This document shows positions 6,341 through 57,359 of a stretch of DNA of 64,000 nt, in pieces. Below the pieces are notes generated by a model. The model ran no database searches. It was not told the DNA's origin and saw only the letters and a list, made by a program, of their open reading frames with translations. The number at the start of each line of letters is the position of its first letter. Position 1 is the first letter of the stretch. The DNA lies in the IMG/VR virus record IMGVR_UViG_3300029134_000184; one strand, given 5' to 3'. The stretch comes from a virus. The position numbers and the translations under genes were made by a program.

Positions 6341-6461
6341 TACAAGGTTTTGGCTTGTACAAAAACCTATAACAACACATGAGCAGCGGGGAAAACCTGC
6401 TGTTTATTTTTTGCCTGATTTTGCATATTGAAAACAAATACAAAAACAGGAGGGAAAAATA

Positions 6462-11865: not shown

Positions 11866-11966
11866 TTCTTTCCTCCTTTTGCTGCATATACAATATGCAA
11901 AAAATCCGCAAAAATTTGACAATTTTAAAAACGGCTGTTAAATTAAAAGAAAAAGGAGGTAAGAAT

Positions 11967-18800: not shown

Positions 18801-19284
18801 AGACAAGAATTATATTACAAATTCCTATCATATCAGAGTAACAGAAAATATCAATGCTTTTGACAAGCTGACAAAAGAAGCAGAGTTCCAGAAACTGTCT
18901 CCTGGCGGGGCAATCTCATATGTTGAGGTGCCTAATATGCAGGGAAACATTCCGGCGGTTCTTGCAATCATCAAACATATCTACAATACAATTCTTTATG
19001 CTGAACTGAATACAAAGTCAGACCAGTGTGAGGCTTGTGGATATAATGGAGAAATCCAGATTGTGAACAAAGACGGCAAGCTGATTTGGCGCTGCCCGCA
19101 GTGCGGATGTACAGACCAGAACAAGATGCACGTTGCCAGAAGGACTTGTGGATATATCGGAACGCAGTATTGGAACCAGGGAAGGACTCAGGAAATCGCA
19201 GAACGTGTATTACACGTATCTGTTGATGAAGATGAATCTGAACAGAAACCAGTAAAAATACTGCCAAAATGTGTTGTTGCTTAA
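15826..19284 (+). CDS. nrdD: anaerobic ribonucleoside-triphosphate reductase NrdD (class III), interrupted by an intein
   Basis: ATP-cone N-terminus. C-terminal zinc ribbon CEACGY...CPQCGC and glycyl-radical motif RTCGYIG. The extein junction PSMG|C...SHN|CRSFL matches the conserved NrdD MGCRSFL block. Confidence 0.9.
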   Translation: MDIRTEERYEDDFNQGNLFIMKRSGERVPFDESKIVRAIEKANAEVTIPLEKMSEEKIEEIAAQIKRDAENAGRDLSVEEIQDKVEDSLMIAGYCTLARLYITYRYKHNLDRKKSTLDKKIESLINVKVNKDGSVSGSNEEVNQENSNKDTKVLSVQRDYMAGEWSREYTSRNLLPEDVVNAHRSGLIHVHDTDYMAQPEGNCCLINLEDMLQNETCISGTKIERPKSFMTASTVASQIIAQVASSQYGGQTISLAHLAPFVDISRQKILKRLSKEMSDIGIEVTEEKLKELAEKEVRKEVENGCQTLQYQLITLQTTNGQAPFVTVFMYLNEAKNEREKEDLALLIEVMFKQRMLGVKDSSGYYITPAFPKLIYCLQEDNISEDGKYWYLTELAAKCTAKRMVPDYISEKKMLELKGDVYPSMGCVDGKEVVTYKYNGKVYVEAFERMWNRLGKYFEINLQENGKDYVMKTPGVMIYDQCKGFVDNYGIIKNHNSEWLRISFSNGRTITCTKDHPFETCDNRVVYAKDLKESDLIAIDKTSDFAPEYTYSMKTNRAWLYGFTLCDSTYYDSIIASIAQDGEQEIKDMFVNTIKSEYGLDVTDTERHRGVRGNYIDLLVNSDGTNTYRNLRLDLACSFEGKAKNDRHIPNEVFSWTKEAKLAFLAGMIDADGYLSTHMKKAKMLIGSTNKELAIQQMLLAQSCGMFAVIYPNRYKTNRRDKIRYRVEFTPTEELLTFIQCEKKVALHDSILGNTNASIASESTCHITKVEEINEEGFSYDVTTASEHFTVSGLYSHNCRSFLTPDRCSEKVGNIAHALNYEEGKHKYYGRFNQGVVTINLIDVACSSEGDEDRFWKILEERLNLCHKALRAKHERLLGTPSDVAPIQWQYGALARLKPGEVIDPLLFNGYSTISLGYAGLAECVYFMKHESHTSENGKEFGLKVMQALNDACGKWKTEENIDYSVYGTPLESTTYKFAKCLQKRFGKIPGVTDKNYITNSYHIRVTENINAFDKLTKEAEFQKLSPGGAISYVEVPNMQGNIPAVLAIIKHIYNTILYAELNTKSDQCEACGYNGEIQIVNKDGKLIWRCPQCGCTDQNKMHVARRTCGYIGTQYWNQGRTQEIAERVLHVSVDEDESEQKPVKILPKCVVA
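17101..18216 (+). mobile_element. intein with LAGLIDADG homing-endonuclease domain inside nrdD
   Basis: Begins with Cys (CVDGKEVV) and ends SHN before extein Cys. Two LAGLIDADG blocks (LYGFTLCDSTYY, LAGMIDADGYLS). Confidence 0.8.
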
Positions 19285-28350: not shown

Positions 28351-28503
28351 GTATATGCCTGTAGCTTTTGCTGCAGGTTTTTTTAGTGTGTCACTTTCCT
28401 CTGCGTTTTGCATATTAGCCTTGAGCGAAAAATCCGCAAAAAAATAAGGGTTTTTGAAATTTGCGGCATATTGCGTGCAGAAGAAATAAGAGGTGTAGTC
28501 AAT

Positions 28504-34996: not shown

Positions 34997-35434
34997 ATGC
35001 GTAAAAAAATATTATTACTGACACTTACATTATCCGCAGTAGTGATGACATCCGGCTGCGGCTGCGGTAAGCCAAAAACAGTTGAGGAGGATATCGTAGC
35101 TGAAAGCGAGAAAAAAGATACAGTTGATATAACGGCTGACCCAACCGATTCGCCGACACCGACAATTAAGACGGAGGATGACTTTACGGAAGAGGATTTC
35201 AAAAACACGGAATATGTCACCATAGATAACGTAAACGTGAGGGCAAACCCGGATGCAAATTCTGACATCATCAGCAGCATGGAAAAAGGGTCACGGGTTA
35301 AGGTATCCGGACGAAAAGAGGATAAAGAAGGCAATAAATGGTACAAAGTATCTGCTGATGATTCGGGCACGATTGGATACATGTCGACGAAATATGTTAA
35401 CATTGTCCATAAGAAAGGAGATACAGCAAAATGA
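34997..35434 (+). CDS. lipoprotein with SH3b-like domain
   Basis: Signal/lipobox LSAVVMTSGCGCG. C-terminal VNVRANPDANSDIISSMEKGSRVKVSG..WYKV resembles the bacterial SH3. Confidence 0.55.
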   Translation: MRKKILLLTLTLSAVVMTSGCGCGKPKTVEEDIVAESEKKDTVDITADPTDSPTPTIKTEDDFTEEDFKNTEYVTIDNVNVRANPDANSDIISSMEKGSRVKVSGRKEDKEGNKWYKVSADDSGTIGYMSTKYVNIVHKKGDTAK

Positions 35435-37203
35435 GAAAAGGCAAAGACCCAAACAAGAAGCCACCGACAAAAAGACAGAAGATTATCTGGACTTCATTCA
35501 TCGTAATCTGTGTTTTGATGATAGCGGTAATGATATGCGGAGTTTTCGGGCTTAAGAAAGCAAAGCTATTTAAAGATAGTGCCAAGGAAGTTAAATATGA
35601 AAAATTCCTTGAAATGATTGATGACAAAAAAGTCAAAGACATCAAATGGTCAGAGGATGAAGAGACCATCACTTTCAGCGACAAGAAAGATAAGTCTTAT
35701 ACAACAGCCAATCCGAAATATGAAGACTTTAAAAAAGATATGCTTGAGAAAGGCATTGAAGTGAAAGAGACAAATGGCCTTGGAAAATACGAAACACCGA
35801 TTATGATGGGCGTGCAGATGCTGATGTATATCATTCTCTTCGCGATTATGATTAAATGTACCGGCATGGGCTCATTAATCTCCCCGAAAGAGGCAAAAGA
35901 AGCAGAAAGTAATGTCAAGTTTAAAGATGTTGCCGGTCTGGAAGAGGTCAAGGAAGACCTGATGACAGTAGTTGATTTCTTAAAGAATCCTGATAAATAT
36001 AAAGAAGCCGGAGCTGAGATTCCGAAAGGTATTCTCCTTTATGGCCCTCCAGGCACTGGAAAAACACTCCTCGCAAAGGCTGTTGCCGGTGAGGCTGGTG
36101 TAAAATTCAAAGCCGTTTCCGGTTCTGACTTTGATGAAAAATATGTAGGCGTTGGAGCCAGCAAGATGAGAAAGCTTTTTGATGACGCAAAATCAAATGC
36201 GCCATGCATCATTTTCATTGACGAGATTGATTCAATGGGAGGAAAGAGACATTCAAAACAGAGCAATTATGACAGACAGACATTAAATACACTGTTATCT
36301 GAAATGGATGGCTTTGATGGAAGTAATGGCGTAGTTGTTATCGCTGCAACAAACAGACTTGAAGACCTTGATTCAGCACTTACCAGACCGGGAAGATTTG
36401 ACAGCCATTTTGCAGTAAGTCTGCCGGCGACAGCAAAAGAGAGAAAGCTTATCATCAACCTGTATGCAGAAAACAAGAAATTTGCAGAAGACGTTGATAT
36501 GGAAGCGTTTGCAAAAGAAACTATTGGAAACAGCCCGGCATCAATCAAGACTACATTAAACGAAGCGGCAATCATTGCAGCGAGAAGAAATAATGGTATT
36601 ATCAACCGTGAAATCCTTGATGAAGCATGGATGAAACAGCTGATGGAAGGACACTTAAAGAAGAATGCCGATAAAGACAATATTGAACTTGTCGCATGGC
36701 ATGAAGCAGGACACGCCCTGGCTGGTCTCCTGATGGGACAGGATTTAACAAAGGCTTCAATCATTCCGTCAACTTCCGGAGCAGGTGGAGCTACATTTAT
36801 CACCCCGAAGAAGCTTGGCCTGTTTACCGTTGATGATTTGAGAGAGCAGGTGGTTATGCTGTATGCCGGAAGAAATGCTGAACGGCTTTTTGCAGCAGAG
36901 AACAATATGACAGAAAACGGCGTCACAACAGGAGCTTCAAATGACATTGAGAAAGCGACAGGTATCATCAAAAAGATGATTACCGAATACGGAATGAGTA
37001 AAAAATTCGGTCTGCTTAACCTTGAAGAGCTTGATGTAAAACCTGATGTGATTACCGAAGAGGCAGTTAAGCTTGCTGAAGAATTAAATGAAGAATCTTT
37101 CAACCTAATGAAGGACAATGCAGACAAGCTTAAAAAGATTGCTGAAAAACTCGTAGAAAAAGAAACTTTAACAGGAAAGGAGATAAAGGAGATTGCAGGA
37201 TAA
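35431..37203 (+). CDS. ftsH: FtsH-like membrane-anchored AAA+ zinc metalloprotease
   Basis: N-terminal TM. Walker [31 protein letters not shown], zinc site HEAGHAL. Confidence 0.85.
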
Positions 37204-40440: not shown

Positions 40441-41796
40441 ATGAGTACTTCAAAAAAAATTACTTTAACCCTTATTTGCCTGCTAAGTATTATATTAGGA
40501 ACCGGATATTTTCTTGGCCTGGCATATTTTCAAACACATTTTAAAATCGGAACAGAAATAAATGGTTTTAACTGCTCGTTCAAATCGATAGACGATGCAG
40601 ATGCATTGCTGTCGCGGGAAGTGCAGAGCTATGCAATGGCTGTTAACACCAGAAACGGCGGCGTAGAAAAGATATCTGCGGACGATGTCGGAATGGCGTT
40701 TGCCGGAAAAGATGAACTGATTGATATGGTAAATCATCAAAACTACAATTTATGGTTCCTGCCAGAAAATACAAACGTCACTCTTCCAGTTGGATGTTAT
40801 CAGATTGATGAAACAAAAATGGACGAAGAGTTTAACAGCCTGAAATGTATGAACAATATGGTGAAGCCTGAAAGCGCACATATCGTTGAGACTAATGATT
40901 TTTATCAGGTGGCATCAGCCGTAAAGGGTAACGAGCTTGACGTAAACAAAACCCGTCAGATAATTGAAACAGCAATCAGGCAATGGCAACCGGAAGTAGA
41001 CCTGGAATCATCAGAATGTTACATTGAAGCAGAAGATATTGATGAAGATGTATTGCAGCAGAGATGTGACTTGTTAAATTCAATCCAGGATACAATCATT
41101 ACATATGACTTTGGGGATAGAAAAGAAACAGTAGATTTTGAGAAAATAAAAGATAAATTTATAAATAATGACTATGAACTGAGTTCTAAAAAAATCCAAA
41201 AATATATTGAAAAACTGGCAGAAAAATATGATACTGTCGGAGTTGAGAGAAAATTTGTCACGTTTGATGACAGAACCGCCAGTGTCACAGGTGGTGATTA
41301 CGGATGGAAGATAAGTGTAAATGATACAGCGTTAGAGCTGATGAACCTTATAACAGAAGATACGCTTGATGTCGTAAAACCAGTATACGTCCAGACCGCT
41401 GCAAGCAGGATGAAAAACGACATCGCTCATTCTTATCTTGAAATTGATGCTTCAAATGATATTGCTGTGATGTATGTTGACGGAAAACCAGTAGTCCAGT
41501 CAAAGATTAAAGTTAATGGAGACATCGCGACAGGCTGCTATAAAGTCCAGGGTAAACAGGACATAACTGACGATGGAAGGATAAGAAATATTTCATTTGG
41601 AAACTCGAGCATTTATCAATATACAGGAAATGAGTCTTCCGGTTTTTCCGGCTCTGATGATATTTCAGGATTCTCATCAAATGGAGTGAAAGAAAATTGT
41701 GCAGCTGTGGACGAAACCGGTATGACGACAATTTTTAATACTATGCAGGATACATGGCCTGTAATCGTTTATAATAATGAAAATATTGGAGGTTAA
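40441..41796 (+). CDS. membrane-anchored hypothetical protein (possibly cell-wall associated)
   Basis: N-terminal TM helix, large extracytoplasmic region. No confident family. Confidence 0.4.
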   Translation: MSTSKKITLTLICLLSIILGTGYFLGLAYFQTHFKIGTEINGFNCSFKSIDDADALLSREVQSYAMAVNTRNGGVEKISADDVGMAFAGKDELIDMVNHQNYNLWFLPENTNVTLPVGCYQIDETKMDEEFNSLKCMNNMVKPESAHIVETNDFYQVASAVKGNELDVNKTRQIIETAIRQWQPEVDLESSECYIEAEDIDEDVLQQRCDLLNSIQDTIITYDFGDRKETVDFEKIKDKFINNDYELSSKKIQKYIEKLAEKYDTVGVERKFVTFDDRTASVTGGDYGWKISVNDTALELMNLITEDTLDVVKPVYVQTAASRMKNDIAHSYLEIDASNDIAVMYVDGKPVVQSKIKVNGDIATGCYKVQGKQDITDDGRIRNISFGNSSIYQYTGNESSGFSGSDDISGFSSNGVKENCAAVDETGMTTIFNTMQDTWPVIVYNNENIGG

Positions 41797-41803
41797 GAAT
41801 TTT

Positions 41804-42367
41804 ATGGAAGATAAAAAAGAAAGTGACGAAAAAGTGAACAATAAAAAAATTATTCGTCATACTATAGTTGTATATTTGACAATAGCTGTTGCGACATTCA
41901 CTGCAGTAGTGCTTTTATACTCATGTGTGCTTATAAACGCGTACATCCCGTCCGAATCTATGGAAACGACCTTAATGACAGGCGACAGGGTAATCGGCAA
42001 CCGTCTCGCTTACAAATTTGGCCACGACCCGGAAAGATTCGATGTTGTAATATTCTATGCCCCTGATTCCGGTGAACTCTATATAAAAAGGGTAATCGGA
42101 ATGCCTGGCGAAACAGTGACCATCAATGATGGAAAGGTTTATATTAATGATTCTGATGCTCCACTTGATGATTCTTTCATCAGAGAACCAATGGAGACAG
42201 AAGGTAAAAGCACATATAAAGTACCTGAGGACAGTTATTTCATGATGGGTGATAACAGAAACGAGTCTTATGATTCAAGATTCTGGGACAACCCATATGT
42301 ATCAAAAGATAAAATCGTCGCAAAAGCTTCTTTAAGATACTGGAAGGGTATCAAAATTGTTAAATAA
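41804..42367 (+). CDS. lepB: type I signal peptidase (S26, LepB/SipS-like)
   Basis: SPase boxes PSESMETTL (Ser), YIKRVIGMPGE (Lys), GDNRNESYDSRFWD. Confidence 0.8.
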   Translation: MEDKKESDEKVNNKKIIRHTIVVYLTIAVATFTAVVLLYSCVLINAYIPSESMETTLMTGDRVIGNRLAYKFGHDPERFDVVIFYAPDSGELYIKRVIGMPGETVTINDGKVYINDSDAPLDDSFIREPMETEGKSTYKVPEDSYFMMGDNRNESYDSRFWDNPYVSKDKIVAKASLRYWKGIKIVK

Positions 42368-42436
42368 TGCCGTACTTAATAACCAGTCGGCAACAGAAAC
42401 ATTTTGACAAAAAATAAAACAGGAGGAAAAAGTCAA

Positions 42437-43720
42437 ATGGATAAAAATAAGAAGACCACTGAAGATGACTTAGAAGAGAAAGACGTCATAATCGGGGCAG
42501 AAGAAGCAGACGACGAAATAGAAGACGATGACCTTGAAGAAGATGACAGCTATGAAGAAGAAGCTGAGGAAGAGGAGGAAGAGGAGGAAGAGGAGGAAAA
42601 GGAGCCATCAAAAAACTCAAAGAACTCAAAGCCTCAAAAATCAAAACCATCTAAGCCATCCAAGCCGCAAAAAGAGCCAAAAAAGAAAGTTAAAAAGAAA
42701 CAGGAAGAGTATGAAGATGAAGAGGAATATGAAGACGATGACGAATATGATGATGATTACGACAACGATGAGGGCGGCGGAAAGACAAAAATTATTATCA
42801 TCGCAGTTGTGATTGCAGCTGCAGTCGCTGCGGCAGGTATCTTCATGTATAACAAAATCACAAAGGATAATGAAGCAGAGCAGCAGCGCCAGGAGCAGAT
42901 TGAACAGCAGGCGCAGGCAGATGAAGCTCAGAAGAAAATCCAGGAGGCTAATGAAGCTGAAGCAAAGAAAAATGCGGAAGAAAATCAGGACGTAGATGAT
43001 GAAGAAGAAGAGGAAACTCCAACCCCGACAGAAGAACCTGTCGCTACATCTACTCCAAAACCGCTTCCAACAGCAACTCCAACAGCAACACCTTTCCCGG
43101 AGGATACAACTGATGATACTTATTACACACCTGACGATAACGATGGTGTTGTAAATGTTTCAAATGATGGAACAACAGGTGGAATATCAAATGATACAGA
43201 AGATGTTCAGCCAGAAGCGACACAGGCACCGGCAGGGGTTATCTTTGTAGGAGATTCAAGATTCCGTGCTATGGCTAACATCGCAACAGACAACTCAGAC
43301 CTTTGGGAATGTTCTTCAACCGGAGACTACAACTGGCTGACAGGAACAGCGTTTACAGATGTAGACCCGAGAGTCGGAAAAGGCACAAAAGTATTTATAA
43401 GCATTGGAATTAATGACCTGACACAGTACCAGTCTTACGCATCAGCAATTGTAGCGAAAGCTCAGGAATGGAATGCGAAAGAGGCAACGGTTTACTTTGT
43501 ATCAGTTGGACCTGTAGGTTCTGACAGCTATATCTTAAACCAGGATATCGTAAATTATAATACATACCTGTATCAGAGTTTTGCAAATGCAGGCGTTTAC
43601 TACATCGATGCATATAACTATCTTGTTCAGTCTGGATATGACACAACTGACGGAGAAAACTATACAGATGCCACAAGCATGGCATTATACAACTACATCA
43701 ACAGCCTTATCGGACGGTAA
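42437..43720 (+). CDS. membrane protein with acidic/Lys/Pro-rich linker and C-terminal SGNH/GDSL-like hydrolase domain
   Basis: Central TM IIIIAVVIAAAVAAAGIFMY. C-terminus FVGDSRF ... GINDL resembles SGNH blocks I and III. Confidence 0.45.
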   Translation: MDKNKKTTEDDLEEKDVIIGAEEADDEIEDDDLEEDDSYEEEAEEEEEEEEEEEKEPSKNSKNSKPQKSKPSKPSKPQKEPKKKVKKKQEEYEDEEEYEDDDEYDDDYDNDEGGGKTKIIIIAVVIAAAVAAAGIFMYNKITKDNEAEQQRQEQIEQQAQADEAQKKIQEANEAEAKKNAEENQDVDDEEEEETPTPTEEPVATSTPKPLPTATPTATPFPEDTTDDTYYTPDDNDGVVNVSNDGTTGGISNDTEDVQPEATQAPAGVIFVGDSRFRAMANIATDNSDLWECSSTGDYNWLTGTAFTDVDPRVGKGTKVFISIGINDLTQYQSYASAIVAKAQEWNAKEATVYFVSVGPVGSDSYILNQDIVNYNTYLYQSFANAGVYYIDAYNYLVQSGYDTTDGENYTDATSMALYNYINSLIGR

Positions 43721-43744: not shown

Positions 43745-43870
43745 AAAGGCAATGTCATTAAGATAAGCATTCCATAGCAAAACAGACTATACATAAAAAG
43801 TGTATGGCCTGTTTTTTTTGTAACAATTCACTTCTATTAATATGAAGCGCTTATCTTAATGACATTGCTT
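43745..43870. repeat. intergenic repeat copy 1 (inverted-repeat-bounded ~110-bp element)
   Basis: GGCAATGTCATTAAGATAAGC ... GCTTATCTTAATGACATTGC termini. Near-identical copy at 45118..45355. Confidence 0.5.
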
Positions 43871-43944
43871 CCGACGGTGCTTTTTTGCATTTACAAAAAT
43901 CCAACATATTATTTACAAATTATAACGAAAGGAAGAAAAAGATT

Positions 43945-45099
43945 ATGGAATATAAAAAAGAGAATGGAACCTTAATTTTAGGAAGCGTTGAGGAAATGAG
44001 AATGTTTGCTAATGGACATATCACCATAAACCATGATAACGTTAAGCATCTCGTATATAACGGAACTCCACTTCCTCTTGGTTACAGATGTGCATTGGAG
44101 TTTATAATGCTTGATTTAAATAATCTCAAAGATATTACGATTAAAAATGACCAAAATTTTAAATCTGTTAATGGTATTATCTATTCACAAGATGGTGAAA
44201 AGCTTATATTTTGTCCAAATGGGACAACCGGAAAAATTGTAATTCCAGATGGAGTAAAAACAATTTCAAAAAATGCTTTTATGTTGTGTAAAATATCTGA
44301 AGTAGTGATTCCAAATTCTGTTGAAATAATTGGAGACTCCGCTTTTGGACAGTGCGAATACCTGAAACAAGTATTTTTTTCTCCAGACAGTAAGTTGAAA
44401 GAGATAAAATCGGACGCGTTTTTTGGATGCAAAATGTTGTCTGAAATTACTCTCCCGGATAATTTATCCACAATGCGCGATAGCGTATTCAGGGGCTCAG
44501 GACTTAAACATTTTACGTTTCCTAAATATATTGAGTATATTGGAAATAATATTTTCGAAAGTTGTGCTATAAAAAAAATAAATGCACCAAAGGAACTTTA
44601 TGTAAATCATTGTTATTTGGATATTTTAAAATCATGCTGTACGAATCAATGCGATAAAGTTGATACGACTAACGCATTTATCTTTCATATGGAAGAGGTG
44701 AAGCCAATTGTTATTCCAAAGTGCGTAGATAGTCTTAAAGCTCTTTATACAGTAAAAGAAAAGATTGATGCCTTTTTAATGCAGAAAGAGGCAAATGTAC
44801 CAGAATTGTATAAATATGGAGCAAATAATGAAAGCAGAGAAGACGCAGCAGTATTGCAATATCAAACTTACAAATCTGAGCATGCTTACCGTTCAGTTCT
44901 TGTAAAATCATCAAAAATTGCAAAAAGAAAAGCCGAAACGAGTGAATCAGAACTGATGGAATTCATAATGCTGGACATTTGGAAACCAAAAGCTTTAAAA
45001 ACTATGTTGCAAATTGCTGAAGAAAAAGAATATCCTATTGCAACGGCATATATTCTGGATAAACTACCCAAAAAGAGAGGCAACAAACTCAGCTTGTAA
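43945..45099 (+). CDS. BspA-type leucine-rich-repeat protein
   Basis: Repeated IPDGVKTISKNAFxxCKxxxEVVIPNSVEIIGDSAF pattern. Confidence 0.65.
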   Translation: MEYKKENGTLILGSVEEMRMFANGHITINHDNVKHLVYNGTPLPLGYRCALEFIMLDLNNLKDITIKNDQNFKSVNGIIYSQDGEKLIFCPNGTTGKIVIPDGVKTISKNAFMLCKISEVVIPNSVEIIGDSAFGQCEYLKQVFFSPDSKLKEIKSDAFFGCKMLSEITLPDNLSTMRDSVFRGSGLKHFTFPKYIEYIGNNIFESCAIKKINAPKELYVNHCYLDILKSCCTNQCDKVDTTNAFIFHMEEVKPIVIPKCVDSLKALYTVKEKIDAFLMQKEANVPELYKYGANNESREDAAVLQYQTYKSEHAYRSVLVKSSKIAKRKAETSESELMEFIMLDIWKPKALKTMLQIAEEKEYPIATAYILDKLPKKRGNKLSL

Positions 45100-45117
45100 C
45101 ATCAGAGCACCGCCGGA

Positions 45118-45355
45118 GGCGGCAATGTCATTAAGATAAGCATTCCATAACAAAACAGACTATACATGAAAAGTGTATGGCCTGTTTTTTTGTAACAATT
45201 CACTCGGTGAGCTTATGCTCACCTTCACCAGACTTCGAACGTAGTTCTTCGTTGGCAGAAAAAAAAGATGGTCTTTGACCAGAAGCCCCACTTCGGCGCG
45301 AGCAAGTGGCGGGTAGTTCAGTGGCGTAAAACACTTATCTTAATGACATTGCCAA
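45118..45355. repeat. intergenic repeat copy 2 with ~130-bp internal insertion
   Basis: Same termini as 43745..43870. Extra segment 45216..45345 containing hairpin GGTGAGCTTATGCTCACC. Confidence 0.5.
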
Positions 45356-45554
45356 AAAAGGCTGTATTTTTTTTGCAAAAAAATTTGCAAAAACCGAACC
45401 AAAAAGTTTTTTTTCTGCATATTGTAATTGCGAATATTTTGATAGAAAAGGAGGTTGTTTACAATAGGCGGGAACGCGCTTGCCCGTCAGGTAAAAGTAA
45501 GACAGCGCCCGCCTGGTACACGCGAGATAATCGCGGTATCGCAAAAAGAAAAAA

Positions 45555-46409
45555 ATGAAAAAGAACCAAAAAATAGGAGCAAAAGAAAGTAAGCGTAAAA
45601 AGAAAAAGAAAAAAGGAATATCAGCCAGCGATATAGTGCTGATGCTGATATTTATAGTAGCGCTTACAGTAGCTGCTTTTGCCGGATACAGACTGTATTC
45701 TATCATGATGGAGTACAAAGCCGGCGTTGATGAGTATTCCCAGATTGCCGACACGGTAGTCAAGGAAAGGGATGCTGACAAAGAAAAAATCAAGAAACTG
45801 AAAGATGCAGAAACAGGCGAAGAAGTCAAGCACTGGGAATCACCGCTTGATATCGACTTTAAGGAACTTAAATCTATCAACCCGGATGTAGCCGGATGGA
45901 TATATATGGAAGCTCTTCCTGATATCAGTTACCCGATTGTTCAGGGTGATGACAATGAATTTTATTTACACCATACTTATAAGAAGGAATCCATTTTTGC
46001 AGGCTCGATTTTTGTTGACTGTAAGAATTCAAAAGATTTCTCTGACCAGAACACAATTGTGTATGGTCATAACATGAAAAACGGCTCTATGTTTGGAACC
46101 CTTAAAAACTACAAGCTGCAGGAGACAGTAGATAAGAGCCCTTATTTCTGGATTATCACGAAAAAGGATGCATATAAGTACAAAATCTTTTCAATATATA
46201 CCGCCAATGTTGACGGCGATACATATACCTTAATAAAAGGCCCTGGAAAGGAGACCGTTGAGTATGCAAATAATATGAAAGCAAAATCCAATATTGATAT
46301 GGGTGAGTTTGACTTTAAGGAAACTGACAAAATCGTCACGCTGTCAACCTGCACCGGAGACACAGCGACAAGATTTGTTGTCCAGGGAGTGAGAGTTGAA
46401 CCGGAGTAA
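45555..46409 (+). CDS. srtB: class B sortase
   Basis: N-terminal TM. Catalytic His in YGHNM and Cys in LSTCTGD (TLxTC motif). RBS-poor but preceded by phage promoter at ~45417. Confidence 0.75.
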   Translation: MKKNQKIGAKESKRKKKKKKGISASDIVLMLIFIVALTVAAFAGYRLYSIMMEYKAGVDEYSQIADTVVKERDADKEKIKKLKDAETGEEVKHWESPLDIDFKELKSINPDVAGWIYMEALPDISYPIVQGDDNEFYLHHTYKKESIFAGSIFVDCKNSKDFSDQNTIVYGHNMKNGSMFGTLKNYKLQETVDKSPYFWIITKKDAYKYKIFSIYTANVDGDTYTLIKGPGKETVEYANNMKAKSNIDMGEFDFKETDKIVTLSTCTGDTATRFVVQGVRVEPE

Positions 46410-46603
46410 ACGGCAAGAAGGCTGCCGCGGCCGAGTTTATGTAACTTCACAAAATTTTCAAAAAATGTTTCAAAAAATTTTTTATTTGTCATATTAACAG
46501 TAAGCAGCTGAGAAATCAGTTTCTTGCAGCCCGAAAAGCTGCAAAAGAACCAGCAAAAAAATATCGCAAAAGAGCGAAAAAAAACAAACAGGAGATAATA
46601 AAA

Positions 46604-49600
46604 ATGAAAAATAAAATTATTTCAGCCATGCTCGTGGGCATGTCAGCTACAATGGCTGTACCAGTTACAGCAGTAATGGCAGCAGAAGGAGAACCTGCAG
46701 CCACAGAAGCGACCGCAGCTGAGGCCGCAGTAACAGAAGAGGTACCTGCAGAGGAAGCTCCTGCAGAAGAGACTCAGGCAGAAGAAGCCGCCCCGGAGGC
46801 TGAAGCAGAAGAAGCTCAGGAAGAAGCTGTTCCTCAGGTTGACGAGAACGGAGAAGTAACAGAGGCCGCAAAAGATGCGGCTACACCTGCAGATTTCAGA
46901 GAAAAGCTTTCAACGCTTTCTTTCTCTGCTGAGGTATTCGGAAAATATGCTGACAAACTGACAGCATACGCAACAAGCGATGCTGTAGACAAAAGTAACC
47001 TTTATAATTGTGAAATGTCAGTATTAGACCAGGCAGAACGCTATGCTAATGGAGAATCCGGAGAAGCAATTAAAGCAATTAAATATCAGATTGCATTAGA
47101 GTTTGAAAAAGTTTATGGCGAAGATGCATTCCTTCCGGGCCGTGATATCAGAAAAGCTATCCTGGAAGATTTAGGAAAAGCTCAGGATTTTACAGCTTGC
47201 ACAACAATCGCAGAAGCAGACCAGATTTACAAAGACAATGAAGGTATTGTAGCTCTGCCGGTTGACATGATTAAGAAAGATGACGGAGATATCTCTGTAA
47301 AACCGAATCCTGGAGAAGGCGAGAACAAGCCAAGTACTGGAGGCGATGGAACAGGCACCGGAACTGAAGGCGAAACTAAGCCGGAGCTTGATACATATGT
47401 TTCAGGAATCCAGGACTACGAAATCAAAGTCGGAGAAGACATTGATACATCATCCATTTCATATAATGCAGAGCATATTTCATCCGTTGAGCTTGACTCT
47501 TCTAAGGTCGACAATACAACAGTTGGTACATATACAATTTCATATATAATCAAGGGTATTGACGGCAGAGTAAAGACAATTGATAAACAGTGTGTAGTAA
47601 TTGAGAATTCAGAGTTAACAGCTTTAAGAGCAGAAATGTGTGCAAAAGCAGACGTTTTATTTGAAGGAAAATTCACTGAGCAGGCTTATGCAGCAGAATG
47701 GAATGCTGCACTTGATGAGGCAAAAGCTAGAATCAATAAACTTGGAACATCCGATGCTGAGAAAATGCAGGGTATCGTTGATGAACTGACTAAGACTGGA
47801 CAGGATATCCTTGACAGACAGCAGCTTTATATCGCTCAGACAGGATATGTAAAAATCTTAAAAGAGTATTACAGCTCACTTAAATTTGAGACAGATTCAC
47901 AGAAAAAAATGGCAGATGAGACATTAAATGCCGCAATTGACAAGATTTCCAAAGCTACATCTATTGATGCAGCATCAAAAGCCCTTGAAGATGCAAAGGC
48001 AGCATTAAAAGATATTGCAGAACAGAAAGAAACAACTCTTGATGAGCTGAAAGAAGCTGCAAAAGCTGAGATTAATGATAAGGCAAAAGTTATCAACGAC
48101 AGCACATCAATCACAAGTGATGTAAAAAATGCATTCATTCTGAAAATTGATTCCTGTACAGATGCAAAAGCAATTGAGTCAGCAAAGAACTCTGCTGATG
48201 CTGCATTTACAGATGTTGTTGCAGCAGTAGGCGGAGACATGGCTTCATTCGTTAATCTGTTCAAAGACTTAAAGGGTATTTCCCCGGATGGAGATACAAC
48301 AGCAATGATTGACGTTGTTATCAACCTCGGTGCTCCGAAAGATATGAAAGATGGAGCAAACAGAGTTGAAGATGTATGCATCGCATTAGCAAATTCTGCA
48401 GAACAGTTCATCAAATATTTAAATGTTTGCGCAGGCCAGGAAGTTAAAGGCAAAACAAAAGCAGAAGCATATGCATCATATATGGAACTGACAAATGGAA
48501 ATCCAGAAAGAAAGGAGCTTGAAAAAGCTAAAAAAGCAGCAAAGGAAGAACTCGACAAAGCAATTGATGCAATTGACGACTCAACAGAAGAAATCAAGAA
48601 GAAGAAAGCAAGTGTAAAAGAAGATGTCCATAACTTAATTGACAAATCTGAGTCTATGAATGACCTTGACGCAAACCTCAAGTCCGCAAAAGAAGCTGTA
48701 GACGCCCTGATTAAAGAAGTACAGGGAGAAGGAGAGCTGAAAGACCTCAAAGAAGCTGCTAAAATTCAGATTCAGTCCGTTGTAGATGACCAGAAAGATG
48801 AAAAGCTTAAAGCAATCCTCCAAGATATCGCAACTCCGGCTCTTGAAAAAATAGATGCAGCTAAAACTCAGGAGGAAATTACTTCAATCCTTGAGGCATA
48901 TCAGAAAGACATTCAGACAGCAATCGATACATACGCAAAAGATAAAGAACTCGCAGCAGCACAGGCCGCAGCAGTTAAGAAACTGGCTACACTTGAATCA
49001 AAAGCAAAAGCTGATTATGTAACAGAGGATATGAAGAAAATCATCACAACAGCTAGGGAAGAAATCCAGAAAGCTAAGACTGCTGATGATGTAACAAAAC
49101 TGTACAACCAGGCAAAATCTGATTACAATACAGCATACGTAACATCCATGAGAGCAGTTTATGAAAAGAAACTGGATGCTCTGTTAACAGATAATAAGTT
49201 TACAGATGCAACATATCTTGAAAAAGCTAAAGAAGTAGTAACAAAGCAGAAAGCAAATTTAAAGCAGGCTGCAAATGAAGCAACAATGCAGGAAGTATAT
49301 AAAGTAGCAAAAGAAAACGTTGAAAAACTTGTAACAGCACAGTCCACAGCTGCTAACTTAGCGCAGGTTAAAGCAAACGCAATCCAGTCTCTGCAGAATG
49401 GATATCCAAATCCATCTTCCGCTACAACAAAAATCTTAGAGAAATACATTAATAAGATTAACAGTGCGACATCAGAGACAGAAGTAAATGATATCGTTCA
49501 GGAATGCAAAGATGTACTTAAGAAAACCGGAATTGATTATAACAACAATAACGGTGGCGGAAACAATGGCGGTGATTCTGACGTGACACCTACACCTGGA

Positions 49601-49885
49601 GCTGGAATTGATTCCGATGTTACACCTACTCCAAGCAATAGCGCAACACCGAACGGCGGTACAACAACAACATTACCTGGCGGCGGAAGTTCAACTGGAA
49701 CTGGCACAGGTTCAACAGGAACTGGCGATGCATCCCAGAAAGGAACAAGCGATGTATCTGCAGCAGGAAATGTAAAGACCGGCGATGAAAATATGGGAAT
49801 TATCGCAATGGCAGGAGCTGCTATCCTTGCAGCAATCGCAGCAGCCGGAATTTCCCTTCGTAAATTTCTTAAGAAAGACGAATAA
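46604..49885 (+). CDS. large sortase-anchored surface protein (signal peptide, DUF5011-like Ig domain, long alpha-helical repeats, C-terminal sorting signal)
   Basis: Signal peptide MKNKIISAMLVGMSATMAVPVTAVMA. C-terminus NVKTGDEN + hydrophobic stretch + RKFLKKDE. Confidence 0.7.
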   Translation: MKNKIISAMLVGMSATMAVPVTAVMAAEGEPAATEATAAEAAVTEEVPAEEAPAEETQAEEAAPEAEAEEAQEEAVPQVDENGEVTEAAKDAATPADFREKLSTLSFSAEVFGKYADKLTAYATSDAVDKSNLYNCEMSVLDQAERYANGESGEAIKAIKYQIALEFEKVYGEDAFLPGRDIRKAILEDLGKAQDFTACTTIAEADQIYKDNEGIVALPVDMIKKDDGDISVKPNPGEGENKPSTGGDGTGTGTEGETKPELDTYVSGIQDYEIKVGEDIDTSSISYNAEHISSVELDSSKVDNTTVGTYTISYIIKGIDGRVKTIDKQCVVIENSELTALRAEMCAKADVLFEGKFTEQAYAAEWNAALDEAKARINKLGTSDAEKMQGIVDELTKTGQDILDRQQLYIAQTGYVKILKEYYSSLKFETDSQKKMADETLNAAIDKISKATSIDAASKALEDAKAALKDIAEQKETTLDELKEAAKAEINDKAKVINDSTSITSDVKNAFILKIDSCTDAKAIESAKNSADAAFTDVVAAVGGDMASFVNLFKDLKGISPDGDTTAMIDVVINLGAPKDMKDGANRVEDVCIALANSAEQFIKYLNVCAGQEVKGKTKAEAYASYMELTNGNPERKELEKAKKAAKEELDKAIDAIDDSTEEIKKKKASVKEDVHNLIDKSESMNDLDANLKSAKEAVDALIKEVQGEGELKDLKEAAKIQIQSVVDDQKDEKLKAILQDIATPALEKIDAAKTQEEITSILEAYQKDIQTAIDTYAKDKELAAAQAAAVKKLATLESKAKADYVTEDMKKIITTAREEIQKAKTADDVTKLYNQAKSDYNTAYVTSMRAVYEKKLDALLTDNKFTDATYLEKAKEVVTKQKANLKQAANEATMQEVYKVAKENVEKLVTAQSTAANLAQVKANAIQSLQNGYPNPSSATTKILEKYINKINSATSETEVNDIVQECKDVLKKTGIDYNNNNGGGNNGGDSDVTPTPGAGIDSDVTPTPSNSATPNGGTTTTLPGGGSSTGTGTGSTGTGDASQKGTSDVSAAGNVKTGDENMGIIAMAGAAILAAIAAAGISLRKFLKKDE

Positions 49886-49955
49886 TTAGCATATATGCTA
49901 AATGCCAGCGGTTTTTTGCCGCTGGCAAAAAAAATAAAGAAAAGAGGAAAAAGAA

Positions 49956-50810
49956 ATGAAAAAAGGATTGATTGCGATTGTTGTAGCTGCAGTGGTAGCC
50001 GTTGGGGGTGTTGGTGGATACATGATGTATCAAAAAAAAGCAGAAGAAAAAGCCTACAACGAAGAAGTCAAGAAGGCAATTAACAGCCTTCCGTCTATTG
50101 TAGTATACGAAAAAGAGGACTTGCCAACCGTTGAGTCCGAATTTGCAAATGCCGGAAGCTGCATTGATATCAATTCCGTAGAGCCAGACATCAGCAATGT
50201 ATATACAACTGAACCTGGTGAATATGAAGTAAAGTATACATTCAAAGACTCAAAAGGAGAGCAGAGAACAGCTACTGTCCCCTGCATTGTAAAGCCTGAG
50301 TTGTCAATGCATGTAACCGGAATGAAAGATATTGAGATTGACAAAGGTGATGACCTGCCGACTGAATCTGGATGCGAATATGATGACCAGTACGTAAGCT
50401 CTGTAACATTAAACACCGAAAACGTAGACAATGAGGAAGCTGGAACATATGATATTTCATATACTATTCTTGGTGTAGACAATGACATGAAGACAGTTGA
50501 TGGATATACATGTACTGTAAACGAAGTGGCAACACCAACACCGACACCGACTCCAAAACCGACAGCTACACCTACTCCAAAACCGAAGAAGGACAAAAAA
50601 GATAAGAAAGATAAGAAGAAGACCGAAGCAGAAGTTACTCCAACAGTAAAACCGTCTGATGGAACAGAAGTTGGAAATGTTGAAGTACAGAATAATGTAG
50701 TAGAAACAGGTGATGAAAACAATATCTTTGCAATCGGCGCTCTTATTGTAGTATGTCTTGCAGCTGCAGGTGGAGTAATTGTTTATAAAAAAAAGAAAGA
50801 TAACAAGTAA
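49956..50810 (+). CDS. sortase-substrate surface protein with two DUF5011-like Ig domains and Thr/Pro linker
   Basis: N-terminal TM/signal. C-terminus VETGDEN + hydrophobic + YKKKKDNK. TPTPTPKPTATPTPKPKKDKKDKK linker. Confidence 0.65.
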   Translation: MKKGLIAIVVAAVVAVGGVGGYMMYQKKAEEKAYNEEVKKAINSLPSIVVYEKEDLPTVESEFANAGSCIDINSVEPDISNVYTTEPGEYEVKYTFKDSKGEQRTATVPCIVKPELSMHVTGMKDIEIDKGDDLPTESGCEYDDQYVSSVTLNTENVDNEEAGTYDISYTILGVDNDMKTVDGYTCTVNEVATPTPTPTPKPTATPTPKPKKDKKDKKDKKKTEAEVTPTVKPSDGTEVGNVEVQNNVVETGDENNIFAIGALIVVCLAAAGGVIVYKKKKDNK

Positions 50811-50947
50811 TTGTTAGGAGCGGGAATATTCTCGCTCCTTATTTTTTATTTTTTTCAAAAAAAATGTACTCGTTTTATATTTTTTTAGCATATTAAAAGT
50901 GATGACAATATGACAAAAAATAACCACTCGAAAGGAGTAATAAAAAA

Positions 50948-52825
50948 ATGGCAGAAAAATTTTTATTAGAGATGGCCGAGACAATCAAAGCCTCAATTCC
51001 TGGCAATAATATCCAGATTGAAGACCAGGGAAATAAAGCTGTAATTTCCGGAGATATGGAATGCGGCATTAAAGGCATTAATGTAAGCATTGAGTGCTCT
51101 ACAAGTACAATTAAAATTAAAGGAGCACGAGAATATAAGTATCCGATAACTGAAGCGTCAAAAGACATCTTTCAGCAGGAAATGATAAAAAAATATAATG
51201 GGGATTACAACATCTATGCAAGCGGGCAGATGCTGGCGTTCTCAAAATTCTTCTCTTATCAGACCTCAAATGAGGCAATAAATATTACTAAAAATGCAAT
51301 TGCAGCAATGCAGGATATGGTCGAAGAGTTTGAAAATAAATGTGTCAACTTTATGGAAAAAACTGAAGACGATTCATCCGAAAATGAAGAATATAACCCG
51401 GAAGCAAATGTAAATATCGTAAATGTTGATAACAACTATCACGCAGTTTCAATGACAGAGCAGGACAACCAGGCCTATGATGATGAGCATAAAAGTTTCT
51501 CAGAGGAAATCTTTGATAAGCTGGTCACAAGCATCGGAGGAAGAAGGGTAGGAAATGAAGTAACTGTTTCTGATGAAGAATCAGGGAAGATTACCAGATG
51601 CGTTTTATTCCCTCTTGACGCTGAAATCCTTGTATCCGTATCAACAAATGTTTCACATGATATCGGTGCAATGTATGCGTCATTCATTAATGCAAACTAT
51701 CCGGAGCTTAGAAGTGCTTATGACACAGACAATGAACTGTTTACTGTAAGAAGATATTCTTCTCCGGATAAATATGCACCGGAAGAAACTGAGGAATACT
51801 TAAAAATGTGCAGTACCGCAATTGATGCTTGCGTACAGAACTACAAAGCAACATTGACCAAAAAAGACTCATCTGATTTCGCATCAGACGTGCAGCAGAT
51901 TCTGGCAGAACAAACAGAAACCGTTGCCGAAAGAGAAAAGGTTGTGGCATCAAGGGAAGAGGCAATGGCTCAGAAAGAGCAGGAAATGCTTGCTCGTGAG
52001 GCGGAACTCAATAAGAAATTAAAAGAAGTTGAAGCCGAAAAAGCAAAAATGCAGGCAGAGGCTGAAAAGGAGCAGAAGCGTCTTGAAGAACATGAAAAAG
52101 AGATGCAGGACAAAATCAAGGAATACGAAGACAGAAATACAAGAGATATCCTGAATATCCAGCAGCTGGCGAATCAGGTGGCCGCGCTCCAGAATAGACA
52201 GAATGCCTTAGGAAATGTGGACAATGATGCTGAGGAAGAAATCTTCAGAATGAAATCCAAGGTGCAGCAGTTGACATCCCAGAAAATCGCCCTTGAAAGC
52301 AAGCTGACTGAAAAAATCAATCTTAAAGAAAAGCGAATCAGAGAACTGTCTGATACTATTTCTGAAAAGAACGCTGAAATCAGTAAAATCAATTTAAATA
52401 TTGATGATATGGTGCAGAGTAAGGTTACGACAGAACTTGGAAAAACCGAAAAGAAGATGAAATCCATGGAATCTCAGCTTAAGGAAATCGGACACATCCT
52501 TACACCGGAAGACCTGATTGAATATCTCGAGCAGTATGATGATATGGAAATCAAAAAATTCCATGCGCCAAATGCCGAAGTTGTTGCATATAACGACGGA
52601 GCATTGGAAATCAGAATCAGAATTGGTGATATGAACTATGTTGATGTATCAAGGGAGGCTTCTTTAAAAGACCAGGTGCTGAGAGTATTAAATTCAAAGC
52701 ATGGTGATGTTAAGTTTTTCAGTAAAGATAACAAAATCATAGCGCGAGCATATTTCAAGAAAAATGCCTCCACAGCAGATGTAGATGACCTTATTGCAAC
52801 ATTAGCATCTAATTTCAATAAGTAA
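50948..52825 (+). CDS. hypothetical protein with long coiled-coil region
   Basis: Phage promoter at ~50888. Central E/K/Q-rich heptad region. Confidence 0.45.
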   Translation: MAEKFLLEMAETIKASIPGNNIQIEDQGNKAVISGDMECGIKGINVSIECSTSTIKIKGAREYKYPITEASKDIFQQEMIKKYNGDYNIYASGQMLAFSKFFSYQTSNEAINITKNAIAAMQDMVEEFENKCVNFMEKTEDDSSENEEYNPEANVNIVNVDNNYHAVSMTEQDNQAYDDEHKSFSEEIFDKLVTSIGGRRVGNEVTVSDEESGKITRCVLFPLDAEILVSVSTNVSHDIGAMYASFINANYPELRSAYDTDNELFTVRRYSSPDKYAPEETEEYLKMCSTAIDACVQNYKATLTKKDSSDFASDVQQILAEQTETVAEREKVVASREEAMAQKEQEMLAREAELNKKLKEVEAEKAKMQAEAEKEQKRLEEHEKEMQDKIKEYEDRNTRDILNIQQLANQVAALQNRQNALGNVDNDAEEEIFRMKSKVQQLTSQKIALESKLTEKINLKEKRIRELSDTISEKNAEISKINLNIDDMVQSKVTTELGKTEKKMKSMESQLKEIGHILTPEDLIEYLEQYDDMEIKKFHAPNAEVVAYNDGALEIRIRIGDMNYVDVSREASLKDQVLRVLNSKHGDVKFFSKDNKIIARAYFKKNASTADVDDLIATLASNFNK

Positions 52826-56086: not shown

Positions 56087-56395
56087 ATGAAAAAGACAAT
56101 GTATTCTGCAATGAAAAACCTAGCGGAATATATTGCTGCAAGCCAGTCGTCTGACTTTGATGGAATATGGGATGAATGGAGCAGCAAATATAAACCGGAA
56201 GATTATATGGAATTACCGCTTAGGAAAATGGGAATGCAGTTATGTCAAATAGACAAAGCTGAGATAAAGAGTGTGCCAGAAAGAAGCTATAGAGACACAA
56301 TTAAAAAGACGTTAAAACCTGGAATTAATAAGGAGGAGTTCGAAAATGAGCGAGAAGAATACTTCAAATCAGCAAGATACGACGAAGCAGAATGA
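56087..56395 (+). CDS. hypothetical protein
   Basis: Two promoter motifs upstream (56020, 56032). RBS AAGGAGG. Confidence 0.45.
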   Translation: MKKTMYSAMKNLAEYIAASQSSDFDGIWDEWSSKYKPEDYMELPLRKMGMQLCQIDKAEIKSVPERSYRDTIKKTLKPGINKEEFENEREEYFKSARYDEAE

Positions 56396-57359
56396 AAAAT
56401 ATGATGTTGTATATAATAAAAATTCAGGATACAGCCAGAGCGAAGTTACGAAACTGATAAAAATATATCATATGGCGATGGCAGCCGGAGATAATGTAAC
56501 CGTGCAGGATGCTTATACAAAAATATACTTTTTTATTGCAAAGTATGTATATAAAACACTGTGGGGCAATTACCATACATTAATGCAGAACAAGTACCAC
56601 CGTGAAGATATAGTCCAGGACGTGTGGGTAAAAATTTTTAATGAGCTGAAAAACTTTGACCCGGACAAGGGTGCCCTCACTACTTTTATTACTCCGTGGA
56701 TAAAGCACGTTGTGTCAGATTATGCAAGCAAAAACTTCAGAAAGACTTCAGTTTATTATGCGAATGCTATGACGAAGATAAATGGAGCCCAGAACTATTG
56801 CAAACAGTATGGTTTAAATTCAGATGATATTGAGACAATCATGAGTCTGACAGGATTGTCAGAAGCGACAGTAAAAAATACTCTTGATATTATGTCTAAA
56901 AAAGACAGCGTCTCATATGAAGCCTTAATTGATGCCGGTGCTGATTATGTTACACAGATTAAAGGGCCTGAGGAGTCAGTAATTGAAGCAGAATCAGAAC
57001 GTAACCTTGGGGAGCTTCTCAGGGATGTGTTAACTGATGAAGAACTGCAATTGTTATCACTACTGCTTAATCCGGAAAACGCAAACAAAAAGCATTCAAG
57101 CTACCGTGAAATCGCTGAACAGATTCCGGGAAGTAATATTCCTAAAATCAAGAGAAAGATTTCAAGGATAACTACAAAACTTAAAAACAATGAAAGATTT
57201 GCCCAGATGTATCCATACATTATCGCGCAGGAAAAAGCGCTTGAGGATAATTATATTCCAGTGCTGGATGATACAGATGAGGTTGATGAAATGTATGAAA
57301 ATTTTGACGATATTGATGTAAATGATGGCTGGAGCAAGGCAAAAAAGAAAAAGAAATAA
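56346..57359 (+). CDS. sigma-70-family factor (region 2 and region 4)
   Basis: DIVQDVWVKIFNELKNFDPDKGALTTFITPWIKHVVSDYASKNFRK (region 2-like). Region-4-like HTH SYREIAEQIPGSNIPKIKRKISRITTKLK. Confidence 0.55.
   Translation: MSEKNTSNQQDTTKQNEKYDVVYNKNSGYSQSEVTKLIKIYHMAMAAGDNVTVQDAYTKIYFFIAKYVYKTLWGNYHTLMQNKYHREDIVQDVWVKIFNELKNFDPDKGALTTFITPWIKHVVSDYASKNFRKTSVYYANAMTKINGAQNYCKQYGLNSDDIETIMSLTGLSEATVKNTLDIMSKKDSVSYEALIDAGADYVTQIKGPEESVIEAESERNLGELLRDVLTDEELQLLSLLLNPENANKKHSSYREIAEQIPGSNIPKIKRKISRITTKLKNNERFAQMYPYIIAQEKALEDNYIPVLDDTDEVDEMYENFDDIDVNDGWSKAKKKKK

Follow-up and report, generated by a model that had tools for sequence, protein, structure and literature searches.

The subject of this report is a cassette of three genes at positions 45415-50810 of a 64,000-nucleotide stretch of DNA, IMG/VR record IMGVR_UViG_3300029134_000184, which is referred to as the window and to which all plain coordinates refer. 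On its + strand, a class B sortase of 284 amino acids (aa) is encoded at 45555-46409 and is followed by the genes of two surface proteins, here called the large substrate (1093 aa, 46604-49885) and the small substrate (284 aa, 49956-50810). A preliminary description of this DNA had placed two surface proteins directly behind a sortase, and the three + strand open reading frames bear this out. We show here that both proteins end in a sorting signal of the type x-V-x-T-G-D-x-N, that this motif is under selection, and that the cassette is retained as a unit in a family of giant conjugative elements.

The product of 45555-46409 is identified by its sequence matches as a genuine class B sortase. 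As a whole protein it scores 177.3 bits against the NCBIfam equivalog 'class B sortase' (TIGR03064; curated cutoff 153.75), and it also matches PF04203 (Pfam Sortase). Solved SrtB structures align to it over about 200 residues, the best being 5b23 (2e-32), and other matches in the PDB, among them Listeria Lmo2181 and the enzymes of B. anthracis, C. difficile and S. aureus, fall in the range 2e-32 to 1e-20. The motifs YGHN (residues 170-173) and LSTC (residues 263-266), both noted in the preliminary description, supply the catalytic His172 and Cys266, and Arg273 lies in the sequence ATRF. His172 and Cys266 are in register with 5b23, 5jcv, 2oqw and 1rz2 (the last two being B. anthracis SrtB), so that a catalytic His, Cys and Arg are properly aligned with solved SrtBs; Arg273 is aligned to the Arg of 5b23 alone, and the alignments with 5jcv, 2oqw and 1rz2 end before it. 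The N-terminus is Lys-rich and continues into a hydrophobic stretch, IVLMLIFIVALTVAAFAGY (about residues 27-47, by inspection), which we read as a membrane anchor giving the usual type II topology. Among sortases located in genomes, the closest are chromosomal SrtBs from Blautia and its relatives (50-55% identity; 50-56% with Eubacteriales in general), one of which adjoins rpsF-ssb-rpsR, and more remote homologues (50% identity) are carried by other conjugative elements (L020/L021).

The large substrate is composed of a signal peptide (MKNK..AVMA/AE), an acidic disordered region, a helical domain, one immunoglobulin (Ig)-like domain, a helical rod, a Gly/Thr-rich linker and the sorting signal. 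In the AlphaFold2 model (mean predicted local distance difference test score, pLDDT, 77), the helical domain spans residues 87-211, the Ig-like domain residues 262-333 and the rod residues 336-974. The rod is thus about 640 aa long and is mostly modelled at pLDDT 81-96, with one 10-residue block at 63, in agreement with the helical, fibre-like protein of 1093 aa that had been predicted earlier. Its Foldseek matches are weak and all to Gram-positive surface proteins, namely the EbhA rod (E = 0.015), then Rib domains and BibA; no PDB match was found by Foldseek below E = 0.015. The small substrate has an N-terminal hydrophobic helix, two Rib-like Ig domains, a Pro/Thr-rich linker and the sorting signal. 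Its AlphaFold2 model (mean pLDDT 76) shows the N-terminal helix at residues 3-43, a disordered Pro/Thr linker and a C-terminal helix, and by Foldseek it resembles tandem Rib domains of streptococcal and lactobacillal surface proteins (9e-9) and internalin K (InlK). Rib domains, InlK and the EbhA-like rod are types found in Gram-positive wall-anchored proteins, and it is to these that the predicted folds of the two substrates belong. Both substrates had been described as carrying DUF5011-type Ig domains. This is directly true of the small one, which matches PF16403 (formerly DUF5011) with 35 bits against a cutoff of 27, whereas the large one has no Pfam match of its own. PF16403 is present in homologues of the large substrate. 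Between the Ig-like domain of the large substrate and the second Ig domain of its small counterpart the identity is 47%, which indicates that the two proteins have a module in common.

Homologues of the small substrate number 80 among the database matches and those of the large substrate 56, the latter down to 33% identity and all 56 with the same architecture. Both families occur only together with this element family. Relatives whose sortases are 82%, 72% and 65% identical have the same order of sortase, large substrate and small substrate, as does an element in a cultured isolate's assembly. The conserved neighbourhood is wider than the cassette, and runs from a PG_binding_4 protein through a signal peptidase (present in most cases) and an SGNH-like protein to the sortase, the large and the small substrate, a protein of 617-625 aa, a DUF285/leucine-rich repeat (LRR) protein and a sigma factor.

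Each substrate ends in a full tripartite tail, recognised by inspection, made of a motif, a hydrophobic segment of about 20 residues and a basic tail, as expected of the cell-wall sorting signals that the preliminary description had seen in them. The large substrate ends in ...AAGNVKTGDEN-MGIIAMAGAAILAAIAAAGISL-RKFLKKDE, with the motif N-V-K-T-G plus D-E-N at 49769-49792 (+ strand) and a predicted T/G cleavage site, and the small substrate in ...NNVVETGDEN-NIFAIGALIVVCLAAAGGVIVY-KKKKDNK, with V-V-E-T-G plus D-E-N at 50697-50720 (+ strand). The tail of the small substrate is recognised by the LPXTG_anchor model TIGR01167 (24.1 bits, cutoff 15.9). Canonical L-P-x-T-G is absent; the pentapeptides are NVKTG and VVETG, in which T-G is kept and L-P is replaced by x-V, so the signal is better parsed, judging from the alignments, as x-V-x-T-G followed by D-x-N than as 'TGDEN'. 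In a six-frame translation of the whole window, V.TGD is found at these two sites only, and no further open reading frame in the window has a sorting-signal-like tail.

The motif has been kept through considerable divergence. Among complete C-termini of the small-substrate family, 58 of 65 read VVETGDEN, and the other seven are VVATGDEN (twice), IVATGDEN, VVETGDKN, VVETGDNT, VVETGDET and SVQTGDSN; all 50 complete C-termini of the large-substrate family fit xV[KRQ]TGD[EDN][NH]. In a joint alignment of both families, V, T, G and D do not vary and N hardly does. The 115 complete C-termini (65 small, 50 large) have Val at P3 but for one Ile, an invariant Asp at P2', and E, D, N or S at P3'. Immediately before the motif, the linker is hypervariable both in length and in sequence. 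In addition, the codons of the motif vary synonymously among relatives (GTA/GTT/GTC, ACC/ACT/ACA, GGC/GGT/GGA, GAT/GAC), indicating that its residues are held by purifying selection rather than merely by recent common ancestry.

How far this signal departs from known ones can be judged from B. anthracis, where the proven SrtB signal of IsdC is NPKTGDE and both the P2' Asp and the P3' Glu are needed for full activity (PMC11987632). Compared with DNPKTG/DE, the NVKTGDE of the large substrate has the same residues at P4, P2, P1, P1', P2' and P3', including the acidic pair at P2' and P3'. The 'TGDEN' part is therefore standard for class B sortases, since the B. anthracis signal contains the same TGDE with the required acidic residues, and the real departure of the tag, as the alignment has it, is Val for Pro at P3. 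The two systems are also alike in that a class B sortase is paired with very few dedicated substrates. They differ in the substrate, which is a NEAT haem receptor in B. anthracis and a helical rod or Ig protein here, and in their setting, as the isd genes are absent here and the cassette lies on a conjugative element. On the enzyme side, L106, F121 and Y138, which pack against the P3 Pro in B. anthracis SrtB, are conserved in the alignment with our sortase; R116, which contacts the P3' Glu, is replaced by Phe, and the Cys-Arg loop is three residues shorter than in B. anthracis SrtB.

Val at P3 of a T-G signal is shared with QVPTG of the S. pyogenes FCT pilins, which a class B sortase handles (PMC11987632), and with NVQTG of C. 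difficile CbpA (PMC4155245). The conserved D-x-N extension is found in neither. Moreover, when a profile built on the 44 residues of the signal was run against 1.84 billion representatives, 40 proteins were obtained at E <= 0.001, including unrelated surface proteins outside both substrate families, with tails such as ..SVQTGDNN, ..TVKTGDSN, ..AVRTGDNT and ..SVRTGDEN. One of these unrelated proteins adjoins a pilus-like Clostridia cluster with an S26 peptidase, two sortases and a pilin-like protein, and another class B sortase locus carries ..TVTTGDN. A code private to the element is ruled out by these unrelated gut Clostridia proteins with the same type of tag; by sequence, the xVxTGD code is a member of a wider class used in gut Clostridia. 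The preliminary view of the tag as unusual thus holds for its lack of LPXTG and its P3 Val, but must be tempered, as the tag is one substitution away from NPKTGDE and also occurs in unrelated proteins.

Taken together, we consider it likely that the two proteins are fixed to the cell wall by the adjacent class B sortase via x-V-x-T/G-D-x-N. Both substrates would be exported through Sec, possibly through the element's own SecYE, and would lose their signal peptides, possibly to the element's signal peptidase, while the C-terminal hydrophobic segment and basic tail would retain them in the membrane. The membrane-anchored sortase would then cut between Thr and Gly, form a thioester through Cys266 and pass the Thr carboxyl to a peptidoglycan precursor, leaving both proteins covalently attached to the wall. 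Their long disordered linkers would carry the folded parts across the wall, so that the large substrate would project its rod of about 640 residues with the Ig domain and the N-terminal helical head, and the small substrate would display its two Rib-like Ig domains nearer the wall.

Several points weigh against this interpretation. The support for it consists of sequence comparison and predicted structures. The tail of the large substrate matches no NCBIfam sorting-signal model at E <= 1. A peptide with the NVQTG of CbpA was left uncleaved by C. difficile SrtB in vitro (PMC4155245), so that class B enzymes need not accept Val at P3. Because the same tag type is present on unrelated Clostridia proteins, a host sortase might process the cargo equally well, and, with an element of at least 373 kb known from the 64-kb window and its flanks (about 85 kb), other sortases or substrates may lie elsewhere on it. 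The small substrate poses a further difficulty: its N-terminal hydrophobic segment of 22 residues, ending in a nearly invariant GGxGGY (49956-50090, residues 1-45), lacks a clear cleavage site, and the helix may be either a cleaved signal peptide or a second membrane anchor. If it stays uncleaved, the mature protein would have an unusual topology, tied to both membrane and wall.

The unmatched tail of the large substrate and the uncut P3-Val peptide of C. difficile (PMC4155245) would both fit a situation in which the C-terminal tails are plain membrane anchors that no sortase ever cuts. We regard this as very unlikely, since a plain anchor has no need for an invariant V-x-T-G-D-x-N placed eight residues before the hydrophobic stretch and selected in two protein families, nor for a fixed neighbouring sortase gene. 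A second possibility is that the housekeeping sortase B of the host anchors both proteins, the element's own enzyme being redundant or meant for other targets on the element. The 50-56% identity between this enzyme and chromosomal Blautia/Eubacteriales SrtBs speaks for it, as do the xVxTGD tags on unrelated proteins beyond the element family, which show that the code is not private. However, the sortase is strictly adjacent to, and co-conserved with, exactly these two substrates across the element family, and in M. gnavus the housekeeping SrtB anchors SPXTG proteins while the extra SrtB paralogues adjoin their own candidate substrates (PMC13121745). An attempt to derive the host's own sorting code revealed no adjacent substrates at 80 chromosomal Blautia/Lachnospiraceae SrtB loci. 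On balance, anchoring by the host enzyme appears unlikely.

The likeness to QVPTG raises the further question of whether the sortase joins the two proteins up into a pilus-like polymer, in the way that the class B sortase of S. pyogenes treats the QVPTG pilins, with the nearby signal-peptidase homologue helping. Val at P3 is common to both, a Peptidase_S26 gene lies 3 kb upstream, and a V-type tag also occurs in the pilus-like Clostridia cluster described above. Nevertheless, the sortase matches the anchoring SrtBs better (2e-32 to 1e-28) than it does 3psq, the pilus enzyme of S. pyogenes (1e-20), and TIGR03065, the QVPTGV model, is unmatched. QVPTG signals serve pilus polymerisation with SipA as a cofactor, unlike the role proposed for the signals of the cassette. 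SipA is a chaperone that lacks the catalytic Ser/Lys boxes and is catalytically dead; in contrast, these boxes are intact in the S26 protein of the element. Finally, the folds predicted for the substrates are Rib-like Ig domains and a helical rod, not CnaB-type pilin domains. Polymerisation into a pilus is thus distinctly unlikely, and anchoring of each protein to the wall remains our preferred interpretation.

The cassette is framed by putative transcription signals. A promoter-like element, a T-run followed by GCATATTGTAATT, lies upstream of the sortase at 45417-45429 (+), and a second one, TCATATTAACAGT, upstream of the large-substrate gene at 46489-46501 (+). The same motif, T-run plus GCATATT(A/G)WA, is repeated on the + strand at 6423, 12741, 37922, 38735, 45417, 46489, 50888, 56017, 60898 and 62618; it precedes the sortase gene, the gene of the large substrate, the gene that follows the cassette (site 50888) and about eight more. 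It stands in intergenic regions, 5-670 nt upstream of gene starts (39-138 nt in front of the three genes just named and several other + strand genes), often with TTxCAAAAA about 20 nt further upstream. A looser pattern, [GT][CT]ATATT, has 14 matches on each strand, the minus as many as the plus. The motif is probably the common promoter type of the element, and it is possibly read by the sigma factor encoded at 56346-57359. If it is a promoter, the sortase and its cargo would each be served by their own promoter of this one class, and a single transcript would cover both substrate genes up to an intrinsic terminator (10-bp stem, then a T-run) at 50816-50839 (+), after the small-substrate gene.

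The 5' leader of the sortase mRNA contains two hairpins at 45467-45535 (+), in which GGCGGG (45467-45472) pairs with CCCGCC (45508-45513) and CGCGAGATAATCGCG lies at 45521-45535, and the region 45400-45570 folds better than its shuffles (z = -3.9). The structured leader reported earlier is therefore present, but it is restricted to near-identical copies: it is kept in a 98% identical copy (L007), whereas the relatives with 82% and 72% sortase identity (L016 and L018) have short, unrelated upstream regions. No Rfam family matched the leader or anything else in the window, so it is not a known riboswitch or leader. As relatives do without it, a regulatory element of general importance was dropped as an explanation, and the leader is treated as a local feature.

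The cassette is carried by what its gene content identifies as a giant conjugative extrachromosomal element of human-gut Clostridia. Contigs bearing the exact sortase reach 373 kb, and another measures 298 kb; in the index of public assemblies, 614 blocks contain this exact protein and 839 contain a neighbouring gene. The G+C content (GC) is 39.2% for the window and, in keeping with it, 40.2% for the sortase-substrate operon, nearly all genes of the window lie on one strand, and the cumulative GC skew climbs steadily. Past the window end, at about 3-10 kb (L111 13658-20831), are genes for a DNA polymerase III beta-like protein, a type IV secretion system (T4SS) coupling protein and a topoisomerase. 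The coupling protein (T4SS-DNA_transf/TrwB/TraG) lies 6 kb past the 3' end and the topoisomerase, with DUF3945/Toprim_Crpt, in the 6-9 kb range. On the other side, about 6-10 kb before the window begins, stand three tyrosine recombinase genes in tandem (L110 1-4551). The window further encodes two TnpB proteins, RtcB, NrdG, SIR2, an SPFH protein, an SSB-domain protein, a sigma factor and three BspA-type LRR proteins; it contains no tRNA genes.

That the DNA is filed as viral invites the reading that a huge phage uses the sortase for virion attachment or for remodelling the host wall during infection, and covalent attachment to virions had indeed been suggested in the preliminary description. 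One 59.6-kb copy is filed in IMG/VR, and NrdD with an intein, RtcB and a sigma factor are frequent in huge phages. However, no phage structural genes (capsid, terminase, tail) were found with PHROGs and Pfam among about 45 proteins of the window or in its flanks, and the genes found instead encode a T4SS coupling protein and a topoisomerase of conjugative type, from which we conclude that the element is conjugative and not a virus. A DNA search of 44001-52000 against phage and plasmid collections gave two short, meaningless matches. Furthermore, the 59.6-kb copy is the single contig of this family in IMG/VR, a related element is found in the assembly of a cultured isolate, and similar sortase-bearing 'huge phages' have been re-classified as megaplasmids (PMC12934698). 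A role in infection is therefore extremely unlikely and attachment to virions finds no support, whereas the suggestion that a mobile element brings its own sortase and cargo agrees with the conjugation genes that flank the window.

The host is probably a Blautia-like member of the Lachnospiraceae, as the nearest chromosomal sortases come from Blautia; no species-representative genome carries the element. The related element in culture (L108; GCA_040919145.1, contig JBCOWC010000021.1), whose large protein is 42% identical, comes from the isolate 'Ruminococcus sp. RTP21484sp1'. This name points to Oscillospiraceae, as against the Blautia-like nearest sortases.

Several neighbouring genes could serve the export of the cargo. 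A signal peptidase I is encoded at 41777-42367 (+), about 3 kb upstream of the sortase (PF10502, 1.8e-42; TIGR02227, 141 bits, cutoff 47). Its SM, KR and GDNR..DSR boxes are intact, and it stands beside the sortase module in most relatives, with its position kept in L016, L018 and L108; it could process the signal peptides of the substrates. SecY is encoded at 3836-5152 and a SecE-like protein of 78 aa at 5165-5401 (both +), the latter resting on a weak Pfam match of the identical gene in L110. SecY scores 316 bits with TIGR00967 (cutoff 253.6) and 135 bits with the SecY2 model, which rules out the accessory SecY2 type. SecY and SecE may thus provide an export route for the cargo. Together with FtsH (35431-37203) and the apparently active signal peptidase, they look like a partial private secretion toolkit.

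The signal peptidase is flanked by a membrane-anchored PG_binding_4 protein (40441-41796) and an SGNH/GDSL-like membrane protein (42404-43720). Both accompany the sortase cassette in relatives, and PG_binding_4 is also found with the distant sortases of L020/L021. The SGNH/GDSL-like protein has a very acidic N-terminus and, in the C-terminal domain for which it is named, GDS and GxND blocks, with a Pfam score below cutoff. Between it and the sortase lies a 1.6-kb insert (43748-45353) with perfect 20-bp terminal inverted repeats, GGCAATGTCATTAAGATAAG, and a BspA-type LRR gene (43885-45099) inside. Its ends are small inverted-repeat units of 122 bp and 233 bp, the 20-mer occurs four times in the window against 0.02 expected, and the 98% identical copy L007 has an empty site, the insertion point being in the loop of a terminator hairpin. 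By these features the insert looks like a composite of two units resembling miniature inverted-repeat transposable elements with a passenger gene.

Selfish insertions are also seen in NrdD (15826-19284), which is interrupted by a LAGLIDADG intein. The same gene in L018/L019 (L018 1-2440) is split around an HNH/NUMOD1 endonuclease reading frame, so related elements bear different insertions in this gene. Two proteins, at 6462-7514 (+) and 10933-11922 (-), combine Big_2 or SH3 domains with an anthrax-lethal-factor-like (ATLF) metalloprotease domain and may, judging from these domains, be secreted proteases or toxin-like effectors of the element. The 625-aa protein at 28408-30285 contains six copies of the DUF4379 treble-clef zinc finger (PF14311, 4.8e-67).

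Sortases with cargo on plasmids are an established theme, and giant gut plasmids with a Sec and sortase module were published in 2025-2026. Among the closest known counterparts are the Hodor megaplasmids (bioRxiv 2026, PMC12934698), which are likewise larger than 300 kb, live in human gut Bacillota and were missed or mis-filed as phage. Other features in common are a coupling protein of the T4SS, insertions of TnpB, SecY/SecE of their own, and a class B sortase together with two proteins that bear sorting signals, which has been read as a surface module aiding spread (PMC12934698). The differences lie in GC (44.6-47.1% in Hodors, 39.2% here), in gene order, as the Hodor SrtB is beside SecYGE and trigger factor while SecYE is 40 kb from the sortase here, and in the cargo, which in Hodors consists of two giants (>7300 and >2600 aa) with S-layer/MBG domains as opposed to proteins of 1093 and 284 aa. 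Neither SecG nor trigger factor turned up in the window. Identity with Hodor G1 or G2, compared through the published description, was judged unlikely from GC and gene order, and the element looks like a further lineage of the Hodor kind, set apart from Hodors by their description.

The Inocles of oral Streptococcus (PMC12340149) are similar in size (about 350-400 kb), in having a sortase and a signal peptidase I, and in LPXTG-like proteins with N- and C-terminal hydrophobic segments. The same pathway of export, cleavage and anchoring was proposed for them (PMC12340149). They differ in having sortase A, a GC of 24-32%, a Streptococcus host and an oral habitat; identity with them is ruled out by GC, sortase class and host. 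A plasmid SrtB next to a large surface-protein gene is also found in B. proteoclasticus (pCY360), an E. bolteae Tcp plasmid, C. perfringens, P. sordellii and C. difficile. In E. bolteae, SrtB and its cargo are directly beside the Tcp conjugation genes, and the cargo of pCY360 closes with APKTGDQT, followed by a membrane segment and a basic tail. In contrast to our substrates, the cargo of these Lachnospiraceae/Clostridia plasmids is SpaA/isopeptide pilin-like and keeps Pro at P3, and their sortases are 28-38% identical to that of the window. M. gnavus, as noted above, has several SrtB paralogues with neighbouring candidate substrates of their own (PMC13121745).

Wall-anchored proteins are a known component of Gram-positive conjugative plasmids, for example PrgA/B/C of pCF10. 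By analogy with these and with the SrtB and cargo beside the E. bolteae Tcp transfer genes, the role of the cassette would most likely be cell-cell or cell-substrate adhesion that aids conjugative spread or colonisation, mating aggregation, or surface exclusion. A bolder idea, which we put forward tentatively and with some doubt, is that the element brings along a self-contained, portable display pathway, in which its SecY/SecE, its signal peptidase I and its class B sortase are fitted to the two cargo proteins, and that these proteins act in mating-pair formation or surface exclusion. If so, the cargo would appear on the wall of a new Bacillota host after conjugation whatever sortases that host possesses, and would count among the transfer components of a gut megaplasmid lineage that is very widespread and separate from the Hodors.

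The element is very common, and gut Firmicutes elements of such size are only now being recognised. The cassette with its x-V-x-T/G-D-x-N signal offers a testable handle on what these megaplasmids display on the surface of their hosts, and bench testing is feasible because a related element is present in the cultured isolate GCA_040919145.1. For the engineering of sortase ligation, it may also be of interest that this natural class B enzyme apparently tolerates Val at P3.

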